DNA of 5,768 nt from a virus. This document shows positions 1 through 5,768 of this stretch, piece after piece. The notes beneath the pieces are model-generated. The model was not told the DNA's origin. It did no database searches and worked only from the letters and a program-made list of their open reading frames with translations. Position numbers and translations under genes: made by a program. The stretch spans positions 1 to 5,768 of the IMG/VR virus record IMGVR_UViG_3300038540_000025; one strand, written 5' to 3'. Numbering within the stretch: the stretch's first letter is position 1; each line of letters begins with the position of its first letter.

Positions 1-107
1 ATTTATACTATCCAATTTCGCATTACCTGTATTTACAGCTAACAATTTTAAATTTTGTTTCGCAATATCAGTATCTACCCCTGCAGTCTTATCTGCATTT
101 ACATTTT
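1..107. repeat. Terminal direct repeat, copy 1 (identical to 5662..5768); overlap of a circular assembly
   Basis: Read base by base: atttatactatccaatttcgcattacctgtatttacagctaacaattttaaattttgtttcgcaatatcagtatctacccctgcagtcttatctgcatttacatttt occurs at both window ends. Confidence 0.95.
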
Positions 108-534
108 TCGACCTTGCTTCTGCCTCTTTAGCTTTAGTATCTGCTTCCAAATTCTTCATAGTTAACATTCTTTCTGCTAATTGCATACCTAACTCCATGC
201 CTTTACTCTTAGATACTCCTGTATATTGAGGGCTTGGCATACTTGCACTACCTGTAGCAACTTGTGTCGTACCACCGGCTCCACCTTTTCCATACATTAA
301 ACCGGCATTAACACCGGCTTTTTTCATTTGTTTTACCTGTGCATCATAATTCGTTTTATCCCACAATTCTAACTGTTTCTTCATGTTAAACTCAGTAATT
401 CTATTACTTGCATCTACTTGAATATCACTCATTTGTTTAGCTTGTTGTGTATATCCTGATGTACTTCCACCAAATATACCCCCCAATACTTGACCCGCAC
501 CTCCTATCAGTGCACTTGTTACCATTGGATTCAT
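1..534 (-). CDS. DNA pilot / minor capsid protein (VP2- or H-like), N-terminal 178 codons. The ORF continues across the circular junction into 5661..5176, giving 339 aa in total.
   Basis: ATG at 534..532. I translated every triplet of 1..534 on the minus strand and found no stop. The frame is continuous with the 5176..5706 ORF (position 45 = 5706). The N-terminus is MNPMVTSALIGGAGQVLGGIFGGSTSGYTQQAKQM...NRITEFNMKKQLELWDKTNYDAQVKQMKKAGVNAGLMYGKGGAGG. A Gly-rich N-terminus followed by an F-N...W...Y..QV..MK.AG.N block is what I recall for gokusho-type VP2 proteins. Confidence 0.8.
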   Translation of the reverse strand, partial: MNPMVTSALIGGAGQVLGGIFGGSTSGYTQQAKQMSDIQVDASNRITEFNMKKQLELWDKTNYDAQVKQMKKAGVNAGLMYGKGGAGGTTQVATGSASMPSPQYTGVSKSKGMELGMQLAERMLTMKNLEADTKAKEAEARSKNVNADKTAGVDTDIAKQNLKLLAVNTGNAKLDSIN

Positions 535-575
535 AATATTATAATTTATTGTTAATTGTTTTTCTCCCTTTTTCT

Positions 576-594
576 TAAAAAGGGATTCTACCCT
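576..594. other. Hairpin in the VP2-upstream intergenic region (stem cccttttt/aaaaaggg, loop ctt). GGG 592..594 can alternatively pair with CCC 601..603.
   Basis: 8-bp inverted repeat 576..583 / 587..594, read directly. It lies 42 to 60 nt upstream of the VP2 ATG on the coding strand. Function unknown. Confidence 0.3.
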
Positions 595-670
595 CTTGAT
601 AATATAGTATATACGCGTACCATAGTTTTAAAAAAATATTATTCTTAATAGTCGCGTATTCTAATTAATT

Positions 671-688
671 AGGCTCCCGAAGGAGCCT
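671..688 (-). terminator. GC-rich stem-loop immediately 3' of the capsid-module genes; on the coding strand it reads aggctcc-UUCG-ggagcct
   Basis: 7-bp perfect stem (671..677 / 682..688) with a 4-nt loop. On the minus strand this is a C(UUCG)G tetraloop. It starts 13 nt after the TAG stop (703..701) of the 99-aa ORF. It is GC-rich in an otherwise AT-rich spacer. There is no clean U-tract after it, so it could instead be an ssDNA structural signal. Confidence 0.45.
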
Positions 689-700
689 ATTAATAACCAT

Positions 701-1000
701 CTAATCTACTGCAGTATCAACTGCTTCGTCATTATCATCTTTTACTACAGTCATCTTAGCACTCAATTGTTTTGATGCTTCAACTTTCGATCTAGCTTCT
801 ACAGCTATATCAAATCTATCTTCTCTGATATTAGTACCTGAAGGTACTACACCATTATCTTCACTATATGTTAAAGTTATTCTATCGTTTAAACTATCGC
901 CATTATTTAATTTTCTAGCAATAGCAAGTTCCAATGGTTCTGCTACATATGACTGTTTAGCAACCATACCACCACCTCTTACAAAAATGTTTCTTTTCAT
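701..1000 (-). CDS. Hypothetical 99-aa protein directly downstream of the capsid gene (possible scaffolding or other morphogenesis protein)
   Basis: ATG 1000..998 lies 4 nt after the VP1 stop (1007..1005). It is on the same strand as all other genes, ends 13 nt before the hairpin, and has an acidic C-terminal tail, DDNDEAVDTAVD. I recognise no family from the sequence. Confidence 0.6.
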   Translation of the reverse strand: MKRNIFVRGGGMVAKQSYVAEPLELAIARKLNNGDSLNDRITLTYSEDNGVVPSGTNIREDRFDIAVEARSKVEASKQLSAKMTVVKDDNDEAVDTAVD

Positions 1001-1004
1001 GTTA

Positions 1005-3062
1005 TTATAAATTAGGCATTTGTTTACTACTCATTTTACGTCTTGCAAATATATCTACCTTAATCTGCGTCCAAAAGTTCTGCGCATCTAACGAAGTATC
1101 AGCAAATATGTAATTAAATTTACTTGGGTCTATGTATGTAGTTAAGTCTTTTATAAAAAAGTGCTTATCTTCATCTGTTCTCCAATCATATCGTCTGTTC
1201 AATGTCATAAACATCTGGTTATCTTGTACTGCAAAATTTCCGTAACATTTATTAACATCCGTCATGTAATGTAACCAACTTGGCTGTTTTCCTGCAGACC
1301 GAAAAATAGGTCTGCTTGTTGTTTCATCACCTCCTGTTGTATCTATTTGAGTTTCCCAAAAAGCCATTCTATCTGTACTCAACTCTTGAAATGCTATTGC
1401 ATCCAGATCAGGTTTATGAAACTCATCAAAATTCTCCAAATTTGTATCCCACTCATTACCTTGACTATAATCTATTCTAGGAGTAATACTGATTATACCC
1501 ATAATATAACTAGGTTCATCAACACTAACAGATACATAACCGCCTTTCTTTTTATTAGCCATAATACCGCGACCTCCAATTGTACCCAATGGTTGATCAC
1601 TTCCTGTATTATTACTAATAACTTCCTGAAAAACTAATTCCTTTGATAAGCCACCTATATACATCGGACTACTAACACCACCGTCTCTTTTTTCATCATA
1701 AATAGCTTGTACCCAATCATCAAATCTACCACCTGTCACTGCTATTCTATTAAGCATCTCCCATAACTTTTTGTTCAATGCTAATTCATTTAATGATAGT
1801 TTGTTATCTACAATATTCACATCTGTTATAGTATTTATACCATTATCTCCGTCAATCCATTCTGCATTCATCCAATTATTATACATATCTGATTGATAAG
1901 TCTTTAAACCCAAACCTTCCTGCGTACTCGCAATACTAAATCTCCAATGATTTGTCATTTGATTACTACCTTCAAAAATATCCTTATAAGGACTTTGTAG
2001 AAAATCATTTATTACAACTGTCTCACCTAAACCTGTATTGTTTAATACAAAATCCTTCATGTCATCAATATTTTTCAGTGGGAACCTTTTAATTGTAGGA
2101 TACTGACCGATACTACTTGAACCATCATTGAACTCAACATTGTAAAACAATTCGTTTCCCAATCTTATATTCGTTGGAAATTGATATGGAGTAATTCTTT
2201 CACAAAATAACTCTTTCGAGTCTTCATCATAATATACTCCTTCAAATATTTCACTAATATATTTTCTACCCAAAAATTCTGTATTATCATTATTATATAC
2301 ATTTAATAATAATTTTCTATAATCAAAATTAGTCGTAGTATTAAACCGTACTTCTAACCTATTAATACTACCATAAGATGTTGAATTAGGCCCTGCATCA
2401 TTCATATAAATAGGATATATATCTCCGTCTGTTTGTCTTAATTGTCCTTCAACAATTGTAACAGCCCAAAAGCTTGGGTTATGTATTAATGCACCTTCTT
2501 CTTCTTGTACATTTGCATAATATTGTTTATAAATATCCCAATACATCAATAAAGGTACCGCATTAAAATATCTAGAAACTTTCATATCTTCATAATCTTC
2601 ATTAGGGACTCTTGGAGTACCAATACCTCTAATTCCTAAATAACTCAATATACTACTGGTATTAACTTGCTGATTCTCCAACGGTTTGGTAAAGTCCAAA
2701 TAATTACCTCTTACCAGCATTTGTGGTAGTTTCACTTGTGCCATATCCATACCAATATTCATTTTATTCTGAACAAGTACTTTGTTATATAGTCTTATAG
2801 GAATACTAAACACATCTAATTGTACCTTATAACTTCCAAATAAAGCACTTACAGTTGGGTGCGTCATTACATCTACATCAAGATTAATCTTGAGACTATC
2901 ACCAGGCAACGCCAATTTATTCATAAAAGGTACTAAAGTGCCAGCACTCATTGTAGACCTCCATGTACTTCCGATATCGTGGTTTGAGTAACCAACATAA
3001 TGTACAATGTTTTCAAGCTTACCGCCTGATCCTAATCTATTACCTCCTAATTGTGTTTTCAT
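1005..3062 (-). CDS. Major capsid protein (Microviridae VP1/F family), 685 aa
   Basis: Conserved-looking blocks include STMSAGTLVPFMNKLALPGDSLKINLDVDV, FSIPIRLYN, YWDIYKQYYAN, LVFQEVISN...LGTIGGRG, EPSYIMGIISITPRIDYSQG and PDLDAIAFQEL. These match my recollection of the microvirus F/VP1 jelly-roll protein. It is the largest ORF in the genome, as expected for this family. Confidence 0.92.
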   Translation of the reverse strand: MKTQLGGNRLGSGGKLENIVHYVGYSNHDIGSTWRSTMSAGTLVPFMNKLALPGDSLKINLDVDVMTHPTVSALFGSYKVQLDVFSIPIRLYNKVLVQNKMNIGMDMAQVKLPQMLVRGNYLDFTKPLENQQVNTSSILSYLGIRGIGTPRVPNEDYEDMKVSRYFNAVPLLMYWDIYKQYYANVQEEEGALIHNPSFWAVTIVEGQLRQTDGDIYPIYMNDAGPNSTSYGSINRLEVRFNTTTNFDYRKLLLNVYNNDNTEFLGRKYISEIFEGVYYDEDSKELFCERITPYQFPTNIRLGNELFYNVEFNDGSSSIGQYPTIKRFPLKNIDDMKDFVLNNTGLGETVVINDFLQSPYKDIFEGSNQMTNHWRFSIASTQEGLGLKTYQSDMYNNWMNAEWIDGDNGINTITDVNIVDNKLSLNELALNKKLWEMLNRIAVTGGRFDDWVQAIYDEKRDGGVSSPMYIGGLSKELVFQEVISNNTGSDQPLGTIGGRGIMANKKKGGYVSVSVDEPSYIMGIISITPRIDYSQGNEWDTNLENFDEFHKPDLDAIAFQELSTDRMAFWETQIDTTGGDETTSRPIFRSAGKQPSWLHYMTDVNKCYGNFAVQDNQMFMTLNRRYDWRTDEDKHFFIKDLTTYIDPSKFNYIFADTSLDAQNFWTQIKVDIFARRKMSSKQMPNL

Positions 3063-3304
3063 TTCTTTAAATTTAAATTGTTAAAAGCTTCAAATAATTG
3101 CATAACTCTACCCGCATCTAATAAATTCGCATTCAAATTTACCTTATTTTCATCCTGATCTTGATACAGTATTGTATTACCTACTGCAAGCATCCAATTA
3201 TCATTATTATTCTCCTTAATTATCGAATACGGAGTCCCTTTTATTGACTTGATAATTATATCATCACTTTCTACTACTATTTCTGTTGAGTTTAGTGTAT
3301 TCAT
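3059..3304 (-). CDS. Hypothetical 81-aa protein between the lysis-like genes and the capsid gene
   Basis: Its ATG 3304..3302 overlaps the stop of the upstream gene (TAATG). Its TGA 3061..3059 overlaps the VP1 ATG (ATGA). The protein is Asn/Asp-rich with no transmembrane segment and no family I can name. Confidence 0.55.
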   Translation of the reverse strand: MNTLNSTEIVVESDDIIIKSIKGTPYSIIKENNNDNWMLAVGNTILYQDQDENKVNLNANLLDAGRVMQLFEAFNNLNLKK

Positions 3305-3702
3305 TACTTTATTGTTAAAATTATTTTTTCTGATTTACTTTTTACTTCGAGTATATTCATTAACTTTTCGAAAGCTAGTTTACTATTAAGTACAAACCTG
3401 TTATCTTGACTCCTATTTGTACCTACTAATATACACCCTTCAGTATCCATTGCAGAGTTACCCGTATGTATCCTTATCCCTTTAAAGTTAGGGACATTTA
3501 ATACCAAAGGCAAAAGCCTTTTAAACTTTCTACTATACGAAATAATTATCTCGTAACTACCTTTAGGGATTGCAGTCATACCTTTGACTTTTACATCCCT
3601 TTCTACATCTTCTAGAGTGTAACCAAAAAAGCGTCCGTCAACAAACAGACGCCCAATTGTACATTCCTCCGATATCCATTCTCTTTGGATTACTAACAAC
3701 AT
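3304..3702 (-). CDS. Putative peptidoglycan-acting enzyme (endolysin candidate), 132 aa, DUF5675-like with a YkuD-like His/Cys motif
   Basis: I prefer the ATG at 3702..3700 over the GTG at 3771 used by the ORF track, because the upstream 59-aa ORF stops at 3706..3704, 1 nt before this ATG. Motifs are TIGRLFVDG..FGYTLED, AIPKGSYEI and GIRIHTGNSAMDTEGCILVG (His codon 3468..3466, Cys codon 3435..3433). From memory these resemble the DUF5675 family and the H...[ST]xGC[IV] signature of L,D-transpeptidase-fold proteins. Confidence 0.7.
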   Translation of the reverse strand: MLLVIQREWISEECTIGRLFVDGRFFGYTLEDVERDVKVKGMTAIPKGSYEIIISYSRKFKRLLPLVLNVPNFKGIRIHTGNSAMDTEGCILVGTNRSQDNRFVLNSKLAFEKLMNILEVKSKSEKIILTIK

Positions 3703-3703
3703 A

Positions 3704-3883
3704 CTATTCTTTTTTCTTTCTAAGTAATCCGAATAGTGTAGCCAATCCAATAAGGATTTGCACAACAACACTTACTACATTGTTAACATCATCGGGAGAA
3801 ATATCACCCGCACTTTGTACCGCAGTACTAGCACCAATGCCTAACGCACCAATACTTACTTTTACAATACTGTCTTTCAGCAT
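3704..3883 (-). CDS. Small 59-aa membrane protein, holin-like (not in the supplied ORF track)
   Basis: Hand translation of the minus strand from ATG 3883..3881 to TAG 3706..3704 gives MLKDSIVKVSIGALGIGASTAVQSAGDISPDDVNNVVSVVVQILIGLATLFGLLRKKKE. There is a weakly hydrophobic Gly/Ala-rich segment, then an acidic turn (DISPDD), then a strongly hydrophobic 19-residue segment (VVSVVVQILIGLATLFGLL), then a basic tail (RKKKE). It is the first gene after the long intergenic region and is abutted to the enzyme gene. Confidence 0.5.
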   Translation of the reverse strand: MLKDSIVKVSIGALGIGASTAVQSAGDISPDDVNNVVSVVVQILIGLATLFGLLRKKKE

Positions 3884-4117
3884 AATAAACTAATTTAAGT
3901 TAATAAAATAAATTTGTCTCATTAAGACGTACAAATATTATAATAAATATTTATACCATTCTGTTAACAAAATGTTAAATTATATTCACTCACCAATATC
4001 TAATCTCTATGTAAAAATCTTATTTACCTCCTTCAATTCTAGCTAGCCGTGCGGCAATGAGCACACGCAAACAACAAATTCCGCTTTATACTAGTTCTTC
4101 AAGCCCTCTATTCATCA

Positions 4118-4125
4118 CAAATTTA
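4118..4125 (-). promoter_or_regulatory. Candidate Bacteroidota-type -7 promoter box (TAAATTTG on the coding strand)
   Basis: Plus-strand caaattta at 4118..4125 is TAnnTTTG on the minus strand, the Bacteroides -7 consensus. I found no well-spaced TTTG -33 element. It lies about 235 nt upstream of the first ATG of the lysis/capsid gene block. A chance match is quite possible in AT-rich DNA. Confidence 0.15.
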
Positions 4126-4186
4126 CGTATATTCAATAAATAAATAATATTAATACCTATATATCATAACACATATAAATACAACA

Positions 4187-4206
4187 AAGGGGCTAAAAAG
4201 CCCCTT
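4187..4206 (-). terminator. GC-rich stem-loop overlapping the Rep stop codon (aaggggct-aaaa-agcccctt)
   Basis: 8-bp perfect stem 4187..4194 / 4199..4206 with a 4-nt loop. The Rep TAA is at 4207..4205. On the coding strand the hairpin is followed by the T-rich run tgttgtatttatatgt, which fits an intrinsic terminator closing the VP2-VP4 block. Confidence 0.5.
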
Positions 4207-5176
4207 ATTTCAAACGTTGTTTTCTTATTATATTCCTTTTCTGATTTTCATACATTCTCTTATTCCAATTAATTTCGTTATTTCCATATCCTAACTTCAT
4301 ATTCATATATTGAGCACTTTTTAATAACTTATAATAATGTTCATCATCAACTGCCTTTATATTCATAACCCATCGTTCATCTTTATCCAATTTATCTAAC
4401 CATAACCTTTCTCTTTCATTCTCATTATATAACATATTCCGATAATATATTGGATTTGCTATTTTTCTACCATTATCTAACCTATATGTATCTTCAGTAT
4501 TTTTACCTTTATATTTATGGTCATTATATTTATCATCCTTTTCGTAATATTTACCTATACCTTTACTACATAATATTTTAGGATTATAATACTCGTGTTC
4601 TTTATCTAACTTATTTACATACTTAACCATATAGTTCACGGTTTTATTATTCACATAACCATTATGTTCATCACCATTCCAAACTATACCATAACCCCAT
4701 CTATCAGTTATATATTTAGGTTCTTTATCTGTAAACAATATACCATGTAAATGTATATGTTCAAATTTACCATGACCCAATTCTGTAACAAACCAATGCC
4801 TTACACTCTTTTTTTCAAATTTTCTCCAACGTTCCAAAAAACGTCTCATTGCTATAGTTACCATTTCATTGTCTCTGTCATATCCACTCAAATCACCTTC
4901 TATTGCTTTATCTAATTCCTTTATACTTTCTGTTGAAAAAGTTAAAGTTATAAATTTTCCATTCTTATTTACCTTTATTTCTTCCAATAATCTTATCTTC
5001 CATTCATTTGCTTTCTGCTTCTTACACTGCATACATCTACCACATCCTATTGGTACATATTTAACTCTTTCATCAGGCTTACCAAATTCATCTAATGGTA
5101 ATGGGGGGATAACCCCCCCATTCTTCTTATTTGCCCTGTATTTAGGGTTTTCCATTAATCTAGGGAATAAACACAT
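4205..5176 (-). CDS. Rolling-circle replication initiation protein (Microviridae VP4/A-like, HUH superfamily), 323 aa
   Basis: Motif I is FITLTF (4954..4937). The HUH motif is EHIHLHGILF, with H-I-H-L-H checked at 4759..4745. The two-tyrosine motif III is YMVKY, checked at 4633..4619. There is also an N-terminal Cys cluster, CGRCMQC. Its start overlaps the VP2 stop as TAATG (5178..5174). Confidence 0.9.
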   Translation of the reverse strand: MCLFPRLMENPKYRANKKNGGVIPPLPLDEFGKPDERVKYVPIGCGRCMQCKKQKANEWKIRLLEEIKVNKNGKFITLTFSTESIKELDKAIEGDLSGYDRDNEMVTIAMRRFLERWRKFEKKSVRHWFVTELGHGKFEHIHLHGILFTDKEPKYITDRWGYGIVWNGDEHNGYVNNKTVNYMVKYVNKLDKEHEYYNPKILCSKGIGKYYEKDDKYNDHKYKGKNTEDTYRLDNGRKIANPIYYRNMLYNENERERLWLDKLDKDERWVMNIKAVDDEHYYKLLKSAQYMNMKLGYGNNEINWNKRMYENQKRNIIRKQRLK

Positions 5177-5768
5177 TAGTATGTACTACCTTTATAGTTC
5201 CCTAATTGGCCAATCTTTACTTTAGGTTTGAATAATTTGGCACCTTCTAACAATAACTTACGTTCTTGAATATCTAAACCGTGTTCTTTTAACAATACAT
5301 CAATATCATACATAGCACCCTCACGATTCCATTTTTCATCCTTATTCTCGTTTTCCCAATCTATACCTCGTGTTTGTGAAGTTACATTTACTATTTTAGC
5401 CATTAACATATCTAATTCTGCAGGTGCTATCTGTATTTCCCACTCCAATAATTGATTATTCAATAAAGCTTTATATGCTTCCCTTTCTGCTATTTTAACG
5501 TTATAATCAATCGTTCTCTGTTTTAAATCTGCATCAAGTCCTTGCTCTTTAATACGTACATCTAACAAGTCCAATTCTTTATTAACTCTTTCAACATTAG
5601 CCATAAAAGTATTCTCTTTTAATTCGTAATCAATACTTTGGATAGAATTATTTATTTCTTTATTTATACTATCCAATTTCGCATTACCTGTATTTACAGC
5701 TAACAATTTTAAATTTTGTTTCGCAATATCAGTATCTACCCCTGCAGTCTTATCTGCATTTACATTTT
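5176..5768 (-). CDS. DNA pilot / minor capsid protein (VP2- or H-like), C-terminal part. Bases 5662..5768 duplicate 1..107, and the true start is the ATG at 534..532.
   Basis: The track ORF 5176..5706 begins at a TTG (5706..5704 = 45..43), which is an internal Leu codon of the longer wrap-around ORF. The frame stays open to the window end. The C-terminal half is Lys/Glu/Leu-rich with heptad-like spacing (coiled-coil-like), as expected for a pilot protein. Confidence 0.8.
   Translation of the reverse strand, partial: NVNADKTAGVDTDIAKQNLKLLAVNTGNAKLDSINKEINNSIQSIDYELKENTFMANVERVNKELDLLDVRIKEQGLDADLKQRTIDYNVKIAEREAYKALLNNQLLEWEIQIAPAELDMLMAKIVNVTSQTRGIDWENENKDEKWNREGAMYDIDVLLKEHGLDIQERKLLLEGAKLFKPKVKIGQLGNYKGSTY
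5662..5768. repeat. Terminal direct repeat, copy 2 (identical to 1..107)
   Basis: See copy 1. The match is exact over all 107 nt by direct reading. Confidence 0.95.

Follow-up and report, generated by a model that had tools for sequence, protein, structure and literature searches.

The stretch of DNA analyzed here (IMG/VR virus record IMGVR_UViG_3300038540_000025, positions 1 to 5,768, hereafter the window) holds the complete circular genome of a microvirus, and between its replication initiator (Rep) and capsid genes lies a gene for a 132-amino-acid (aa) protein of the DUF5675 family. We hold with moderate confidence that this protein is the endolysin of a two-gene holin-plus-endolysin lysis cassette, with a predicted Cys/His peptidoglycan peptidase activity. 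In the model that we propose, a two-gene lysis cassette from tailed phages would be carried between the Rep and capsid genes of the microvirus. The soluble, signal-less enzyme would accumulate in the cytoplasm until a 59-aa membrane protein permeabilizes the inner membrane in the fashion of a holin and lets the enzyme reach the murein, where its cleavage of an L,D bond in the stem peptides would lead to lysis of the host cell. Catalysis would use Cys90 as nucleophile, with His79 the general base, and the two residues are positioned on a beta-loop-beta element that may correspond to the one bearing the active site in L,D-peptidases of the Tlde1/YkuD type.

The protein is read from the minus strand at 3702-3304 (MLLVIQREW...GIRIHTGNSAMDTEGCILVG...TIK, 132 aa). 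An initial annotation, made from the sequence alone, had pointed to a His placed 11 residues before a Cys in the context [ST]-x-G-C-[IV], and both residues lie where that annotation had put them. They are His79 and Cys90 of the protein, in the sequence G-I-R-I-H79-T-G-N-S-A-M-D-T-E-G-C90-I-L-V-G, with the context present as T87-E88-G89-C90-I91. His79 is the sole His of the protein, and the motif is more than chance, occurring in 300,000 shuffles of the protein at frequencies of 1.7e-5 (exact form) to 3.9e-4 (loose form). The two further patterns that the annotation gave for this family are also present, as T15-I16-G17-x-L-F-x-D-G...T29-L30-E31-D32 and I45-P46-x-G48-x-Y50. We agree as well that the protein carries no signal peptide, because it has no hydrophobic segment (the maximum 19-residue Kyte-Doolittle mean is 0.79), and a search of the protein for a signal-anchor-release (SAR), signal-anchor or transmembrane (TM) segment found none. 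In the AlphaFold2 (AF2) model, the N-terminal residues belong to beta strand 1 of the domain; the protein is basic (isoelectric point 9.5) and is predicted to be cytoplasmic. Homologues begin with a Met that aligns with the ATG at 3702, which is therefore the right start. A longer, GTG-started open reading frame (ORF) of 155 aa (from 3771) was considered as the true gene and rejected on account of this shared start and of the overlap between its extension and the conserved 59-aa ORF.

Membership in DUF5675, which the initial annotation had proposed, is confirmed by a match to PF18925 (E=3e-35, 120.9 bits against a cutoff of 26.7) that covers residues 5-118, equivalent to profile positions 2-112 of 114. 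The cluster phrog_1501, whose function is not named, is also matched (4.5e-25), and searches of NCBIfam and PHROGs with the protein returned no functional name. All the signature residues of the family (R7, TLED, IPxGxY, S57, IHxGN, [ST]xGC, G94, and S107) are present. The family is very large, with 778 word-indexed homologues and 12,539 clusters at 50% identity (E<=0.001), and its homologues occur in about 244 phage records of a phage collection, including phages of Bacteroides (crAss-like), Vibrio, Campylobacter, Cellulophaga, Ralstonia, and others. Where the listed records name a host, it is Gram-negative (Bacteroides, Vibrio, Campylobacter/Helicobacter, Cellulophaga, Salinibacter, Sphingomonas, Ralstonia, and Alishewanella).

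Among 147 cluster representatives from close relatives, His and Cys are each found in 146, and the 11-residue spacing in 145. A separate alignment (A3) was built from 28 deliberately diverse sequences, extending down to 28% identity, among them a podovirus, a crAss-like phage, and seven further microviruses. No more than seven of its columns show no variation (Y50, S57, V70, H79, G81, G89, and C90), and I45, P46, and G48 are nearly invariant. On these sequence comparisons, the His/Cys pair is the most conserved feature of DUF5675. A second Cys, within F-x-C-x-T-L-E-D, is found in 93% of close relatives, and the protein of the window has Gly27 (3622-3624) in its place; a few other members (L009, L017, and P0090) are likewise without Cys in this column. 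One may speculate that this second conserved Cys provides redox or disulfide control of the catalytic Cys. Multi-domain members of the family include fusions with SH3_3, Phage_lysozyme, Pesticin, and Tlde1/YkuD domains, among them P0133, which has a genuine Tlde1/YkuD domain C-terminal to DUF5675, and P0135 and P0136, which combine SH3_3 with Phage_lysozyme or Pesticin. Because family members are fused to such domains, peptidoglycan is the likely substrate. The multi-domain set also includes P0150 and P0160, and two other members (P0129 and P0152) are extended at the C-terminus by long stretches that finish with hydrophobic, TM-like segments.

The 59-aa membrane-protein ORF ends 2 nt upstream of the DUF5675 ATG. 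By hydropathy, residues 36-54 of its product form one strong TM helix; the N-terminal segment, rich in Gly and Ala, is weakly hydrophobic, and the C-terminus is charged (RKKKE). A homologue of this ORF sits in a related microvirus, directly upstream of a DUF5675 gene there too, and with a dN/dS of 0.11 between the two copies the gene is under purifying selection. From topology, adjacency, and selection only, we infer that the 59-aa protein is a holin-like partner of the enzyme. The earlier suggestion that the enzyme depends on a membrane-permeabilizing partner agrees with these observations, with an enzyme that has no signal peptide and a conserved membrane-protein gene directly upstream of it.

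The neighborhoods of homologues also place the family in a context of lysis. In crAss-like phage records, the homologue is named "L,D-carboxypeptidase/transpeptidase [phiCrAss001]" and follows genes named "lysis regulatory protein" and "lysis regulatory protein/holin"; in crAss-like phage cr85_1, the "lysis regulatory protein/holin" gene is directly upstream of it. The tailed-phage contig L013 has a Phage_holin_4_1 gene overlapping the DUF5675 start, and in podovirus MW202697 a 68-aa TM ORF abuts the DUF5675 gene upstream. Two small TM ORFs precede the DUF5675 gene in L015/L016, and in L015 a 162-aa ORF directly downstream of it (4054-4542), with a lipobox and a C-terminal TM helix, is u-spanin-like. 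The DUF5675 proteins of tailed phages and prophages resemble the microvirus protein in family (E=3e-35), in the invariant His and Cys, in single-domain size, in their place after a holin or TM gene, and in predicted fold: Foldseek against the viral structure database BFVD gave 13 matches at E<=0.001, most of them without a name and the rest named as DUF5675 or as L,D-carboxypeptidase/transpeptidase of crAss-like phages (TM-scores 0.83-0.94 for the tailed-phage comparisons, including the cr116_1 L,D-carboxypeptidase/transpeptidase, and up to 0.94 overall). They differ in that the carrier here is a 5.7-kb single-stranded DNA (ssDNA) microvirus and not a double-stranded DNA (dsDNA) tailed phage, that the partner is an unrelated 59-aa TM protein, and that Gly27 stands for Cys. 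In another microvirus, Dulem virus 260 (L005), a 71-aa ORF directly downstream of DUF5675 (4039-4254) has a signal sequence and an L-T-S-C lipobox and resembles a lipoprotein gene.

Between the window and two related microvirus contigs (L017 and L018), nucleotide identity is about 77% as far as position 3708, a few letters ahead of the enzyme's start codon at 3702, and this part includes the 59/60-aa TM ORF; similarity is then lost across the enzyme gene (window 3304-3708 vs L017:4225-4617 and L018:279-671) and regained in the 81-aa ORF on its other side. The DUF5675 alleles of the window and of L017/L018 show 34% aa identity over 68 residues. The slot between conserved flanks is refilled with a different allele of the DUF5675 family, and because of this it is the function of the slot that selection seems to keep. 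A further, close microvirus relative, MG883709 (MG883709.1, L003), is without DUF5675 and has in its Rep-capsid gap (1173-1496) a 107-aa LAS/M15-like ORF, annotated "hypothetical protein," with matches to Pfam HH_signal (5e-6) and DUF5715 (0.0017) and an H-x-H near its C-terminus; a 52-aa TM ORF lies at 1916-2074 of the same genome. This non-orthologous peptidase in the same gap looks like a replacement of the lytic enzyme. Earlier studies had already drawn attention to this region: M15_3 peptidases inserted between VP4 and VP1 of microviruses were described as possible endolysins (Roux et al. 2012), and lysis-associated accessory genes were reported between VP1 and VP4 (Kirchberger et al. 2022). 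More recently, Gp7 of microvirus Ebor (2025) was verified experimentally as a peptidoglycan hydrolase and found in trace amounts in virions. The DUF5675 gene resembles these peptidases as an accessory gene taken up horizontally from tailed phages or bacteria and placed between VP4 and VP1, with a proposed part in host lysis, and differs from them as a Cys/His enzyme that is neither a Zn LAS peptidase nor of the Ebor Gp7 type.

The occurrence of Ebor Gp7 in virions brings up another possibility, namely that the DUF5675 protein is an entry enzyme that, carried by the virion (inside it or on its surface) or let out together with the pilot protein, opens the murein locally for genome delivery. DUF5675 domains are indeed present within phage proteins of 868-1251 aa that may be structural, e.g. 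in Ralstonia phage RP31, and such long proteins are among the BFVD matches of our model. We consider a role in entry very unlikely, given that the protein of the window is a stand-alone domain of 132 aa with no capsid- or pilot-binding extension, that its gene is paired with a membrane-protein gene, that its closest homologues stand beside holins in lysis cassettes, and that the slot between Rep and capsid (VP4-VP1) is a known site of lysis-associated accessory genes in microviruses.

As for the catalytic mechanism, profile comparison points to Tlde1 as the closest characterized relative of the enzyme. Tlde1, also known as Tae5 (DUF2778, PF10908; structures 7UMA, 7UO3, and 7UO8), is an effector of the type VI secretion system (T6SS) with L,D-carboxypeptidase/exchange activity and belongs to the YkuD superfamily. 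Its catalytic residues are H121 and C131, it cleaves mDAP3-D-Ala4 (mDAP, meso-diaminopimelic acid), and in the periplasm it causes swelling and lysis. Starting from the Tlde1/YkuD domain of P0133, we collected 92 Tlde1/YkuD-type proteins as a target set (A2), which as a profile matches crystallized Tlde1a (7UMA) at E=1.5e-10. Diverse DUF5675 alignments compared with this set by hhalign gave P=85-91% (E about 1e-6 to 6e-6, residues 18-118), vs P=0.2% for a reversed-target control, and a separate run of A3 vs A2 gave P=67% (E=5e-5). The signal is strong only when diverse members are added, rising from P=13-60% to P=67-91%, with P=60% for close members only. In these alignments, His79 and Cys90 fall in register with the His and Cys of Tlde1, and the match is colinear throughout, running from the first strands through IPKGSY on GPIPEGxY and GIRIH-x-G...T-x-G-C-I on GFSIHGG...S-A-G-C-I to the helix and the last strand. 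The AF2 models of the DUF5675 protein and of a Tlde1-like protein have a parallel order of secondary structure, in which His closes one strand and Cys opens the next after a loop of 9-10 residues. On these sequence profiles, and with no family-HMM match above cutoff, DUF5675 is probably a remote, structurally remodeled relative of the Tlde1 branch.

In canonical L,D-transpeptidases, the His-Cys spacing is 14-17 residues, and an Arg or Asn follows Cys-[IV]. The protein of the window shares with these enzymes (YkuD PF03734, MEROPS C82; e.g. B. subtilis YkuD, 1Y7M, and LdtMt2 of M. tuberculosis) the Cys in [ST]-x-G-C-[IV] after (I/L)-H-x-G, and differs from them in having no Pfam YkuD match, no structural match and a spacing of 11, and in that its expected role would be hydrolytic and lytic, not biosynthetic. 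The resemblance to the YkuD signature His...[ST]xGC[IV]R, on which the initial annotation was built, thus holds for the conserved His/Cys and for [ST]-x-G-C-[IV]; the spacing is Tlde1-like, and the R after C-[IV] is absent (C-I-L-V-G). With Tlde1 the protein has more in common: a small single domain, IPxGxY followed by IH-x-G...[ST]-x-G-C-I, a short spacing (10 in Tlde1, 11 here) and, as predicted here, action on peptidoglycan from the periplasmic side leading to lysis. Tlde1, in contrast, is longer by about 25 residues in its middle part and has two additional short helices, and it is delivered by the T6SS and neutralized by an immunity protein, whereas here delivery is proposed to be holin-like and there is no immunity gene.

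A number of results weigh against the endolysin reading, beginning with the enzyme itself. The protein has no match to Pfam YkuD, its match to Pfam Tlde1_dom is below cutoff (15.6 vs 30.1 bits, E=0.022, residues 74-101), and hhalign with a narrow alignment (A1) gave a local match of 19 columns at P=13%. The AF2 model, mostly beta with one C-terminal helix, is a confident one (pLDDT 95.8, pTM 0.88), and a Foldseek search of it against the Protein Data Bank (PDB) returned nothing at E<=0.001 (best E=0.05), with no L,D-transpeptidase (Ldt) or Tlde1 in the top 50. The control AF2 model of a Tlde1-like protein (pLDDT 89.8) gave 53 structures at E<=0.001, about 50 of them Ldt, with Tlde1a (E about 1e-7, TM-score 0.65) and YkuD among the matches. 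The YkuD fold suggested in the initial annotation is consequently not borne out by the models, and a YkuD beta-sandwich is not established for DUF5675; either the fold is strongly diverged or the likeness of the motif is partly convergent. Foldseek also listed RNase E, N-acetyltransferases and N-myristoyltransferases at TM-scores of about 0.2, which we dismissed as noise and which give no lead to an acetyltransferase fold.

Such results would be expected if the His/Cys likeness were convergent, or too remote to be of use, and the protein were a Cys/His hydrolase of a distinct fold acting on some other envelope substrate, e.g. an amidase on lipoprotein-murein or another outer-membrane tether, or a protease. 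In keeping with this alternative, the positive control succeeds where Foldseek finds no YkuD/Tlde1 structure for our model, all Pfam Tlde1_dom matches are below cutoff, and HMM and sequence searches of PDB sequences with the protein and with DUF5675 profiles gave nothing relevant (Abraxas 2 and HAD-like designs at E>0.01); a 2026 preprint that proposes DUF5675 as a "C82-like" lysin domain also notes "significant differences" in structure from C82. We nevertheless judge convergence to be improbable. Three motifs and the secondary structure are colinear with Tlde1-type domains, at P=67-91% against 0.2% in the reversed control, and Tlde1_dom is the only recurrent secondary Pfam match among the diverse members, found with 10 of the 28 (all sub-threshold, best E=0.0032), while each other family was matched by one member only. 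Peptidoglycan is also indicated by the domains to which family members are fused (SH3_3, lysozyme, and in one case a genuine Tlde1/YkuD domain).

A second set of objections concerns the bond that is cut. We found no report in the literature of an activity assay on any DUF5675 protein, and the nearest characterized enzyme, Tlde1, is a carboxypeptidase that leaves cross-links uncut, and activity of this type would not by itself be enough for rapid lysis triggered by a holin. The DUF5675 protein could instead be a Tlde1-like L,D-carboxypeptidase/exchange enzyme, one that shortens tetrapeptide stems to tripeptides or exchanges D-Ala4. With D,D-transpeptidases starved of acceptors, growing cells would become weak and lyse, so that the enzyme would do what single-gene lysis proteins achieve by blocking wall synthesis. 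We regard this as unlikely, if less so than convergence. It draws on the place of Tlde1 as the closest characterized relative by profile comparison, on the swelling and lysis that Tlde1 causes from the periplasm with cross-links intact, on the near-equal His-Cys spacing (11 vs 10), and on the crAss-like phage records, which speak of an L,D-carboxypeptidase/transpeptidase. Homologues fill the endolysin slot of holin-endolysin(-spanin) cassettes, however, and the LAS/M15-type peptidase that takes the place of the enzyme in a relative's same gap suggests direct degradation. Permeabilization by a holin would also stop growth, making a mechanism that depends on synthesis ineffective, and the relationship to Tlde1 is too remote for transferring bond specificity.

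The partner gene has its own share of contrary evidence. The homologue of the 59-aa ORF (78% identity) is the only one in a set of 5.8 billion proteins, the 59-aa protein has no Pfam, PHROG or holin family match, and no spanin-like or lipoprotein ORF was found in the window. Several other DUF5675-bearing microviruses, too, have no obvious TM gene adjacent to the DUF5675 gene.

The endolysin reading can be taken one step further. Tentatively, and with rather less confidence than we have in the lysis role as such, we suggest that DUF5675 is a distinct, minimal offshoot of the YkuD/Tlde1 group and a true Cys/His L,D-endopeptidase endolysin, and that microviruses of the Bacteroidota type have two-component lysis with an exchangeable enzyme slot. 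If so, these viruses would use a 59-aa holin and an enzyme in the style of tailed phages instead of single-gene lysis; exchange in the slot would bring in DUF5675 alleles of 34% identity or a LAS/M15-like peptidase with the membrane-protein gene kept, and the enzyme would represent a catalytic class so far undemonstrated for phage lysins. A Cys/His L,D-peptidase endolysin would add an extra catalytic class to the endolysin repertoire, and such an enzyme might be carbapenem- or copper-sensitive, as L,D-transpeptidases are. In addition, the cassette adds to the evidence that many microvirus lineages outside the phiX174 group lyse by means of an acquired enzyme and a membrane protein and not by a single gene, and the 132-aa microvirus version would be a compact, convenient minimal system for testing DUF5675 biochemistry.

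With regard to novelty, the statement in the initial annotation that the family has no assigned function is true in Pfam, while GenBank records of crAss-like phages and the 2026 preprint already propose one; assigning a function to the family, which had been held out as the gain, is not new, as the L,D-peptidase prediction is found in both sources. The place of the family in lysis cassettes is likewise on public record, in the crAss-like phage annotations. We found no statement that the preprint's LysPd160 was assayed. Peptidoglycan hydrolases are already known in microviruses. About 20 GenBank microvirus records carry DUF5675, and all those inspected label the gene "hypothetical protein"; we found no paper linking Microviridae to DUF5675, and the recurrence of the family in microviruses and its pairing with a conserved membrane-protein gene appear to be unreported. 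What the present analysis adds is confirmation together with the microvirus context and the partner gene, and not a new concept.

At 57% identity, the best DUF5675 matches come from Emticicia and from a prophage of Flavobacterium psychrophilum, where the gene stands beside an integrase. Because of these matches, the host is probably a member of the Bacteroidota, and the gene was probably acquired from tailed phages. Elsewhere in the window, blastn matches are to Microviridae only, at 65-71% identity over the capsid and Rep genes. The genome is circular and 5661 nt long (31.7% G+C) because positions 1-107 are equal to 5662-5768, an exact 107-nt direct repeat at the window ends, and the window is a circularly permuted copy of it. 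Every gene is on the minus strand of the window, in the order 339-aa ORF (pilot position), Rep (323 aa), 59-aa membrane-protein ORF, DUF5675, 81-aa ORF, capsid (685 aa), and a 99-aa ORF. The coordinates are collected in the table.

Table. Coordinates of the features of the microvirus genome in the window, with the evidence for each
Feature	Position	Strand	Evidence or remark
DUF5675 gene, 132 aa	3304..3702	-	ATG 3702, stop 3306-3304; PF18925 E=3e-35; pLDDT 95.8
Putative catalytic segment H79-T-G-N-S-A-M-D-T-E-G-C90	3433..3468	-	His 3468-3466, Cys 3435-3433; aligned to Tlde1-type IHGG..GSAGC (hhalign)
I45-P-K-G-S-Y50, motif in common with Tlde1-type domains (GPIPEGxY)	3553..3570	-	strongest local hhalign match
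59-aa membrane-protein gene, putative holin-like partner	3704..3883	-	hydropathy, adjacency, dN/dS 0.11
81-aa ORF, microvirus backbone, downstream flank of enzyme slot	3059..3304	-	homologous ORFs in relatives
Major capsid protein (VP1/F-like), 685 aa	1005..3062	-	Pfam Phage_F 2.8e-8; phrog_514 1.8e-35; blastn to Microviridae capsid genes
Replication initiator (VP4-like), 323 aa	4205..5176	-	Pfam REP_ORF2-G2P 4.2e-10; phrog_942 5e-26
339-aa ORF, C-terminal part, DNA pilot protein (VP2) position	5176..5661	-	ORF search on circularized genome
339-aa ORF, N-terminal part	1..534	-	start at 534; ORF spans circular junction
Terminal redundancy, identical to 1-107	5662..5768	.	exact 107-nt repeat

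A linear ORF scan misses the 339-aa ORF, which crosses the junction. No family match was obtained for it, and its assignment as a candidate DNA pilot protein (VP2) comes from position only, as relatives annotate a pilot/VP2 gene beside Rep. The 81-aa ORF has homologues of 81 aa in L018 and of 98 aa in MG883709 (phmmer E=4e-5), and a 111-aa ORF of MT135417 is probably a further one; no TM segment is predicted in it, and the MG883709 copy has a weak match to DUF2188 (E=0.0019).

Scans of the window with Rfam and for tRNAs were empty. A promoter-like site lies ahead of the 59-aa ORF at 3967-3940, and such sites are no more frequent in the window than in shuffles. Terminator-like sites are enriched, with three observed in the window against 0.3 expected from shuffles. 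One of them, a GC-rich hairpin with a T-run at the Rep stop codon (4206-4187, minus strand), could be a terminator or a feature of the single-stranded DNA, and a second terminator-like hairpin of 11 pairs lies within the DUF5675 coding region (3654-3629, minus strand).

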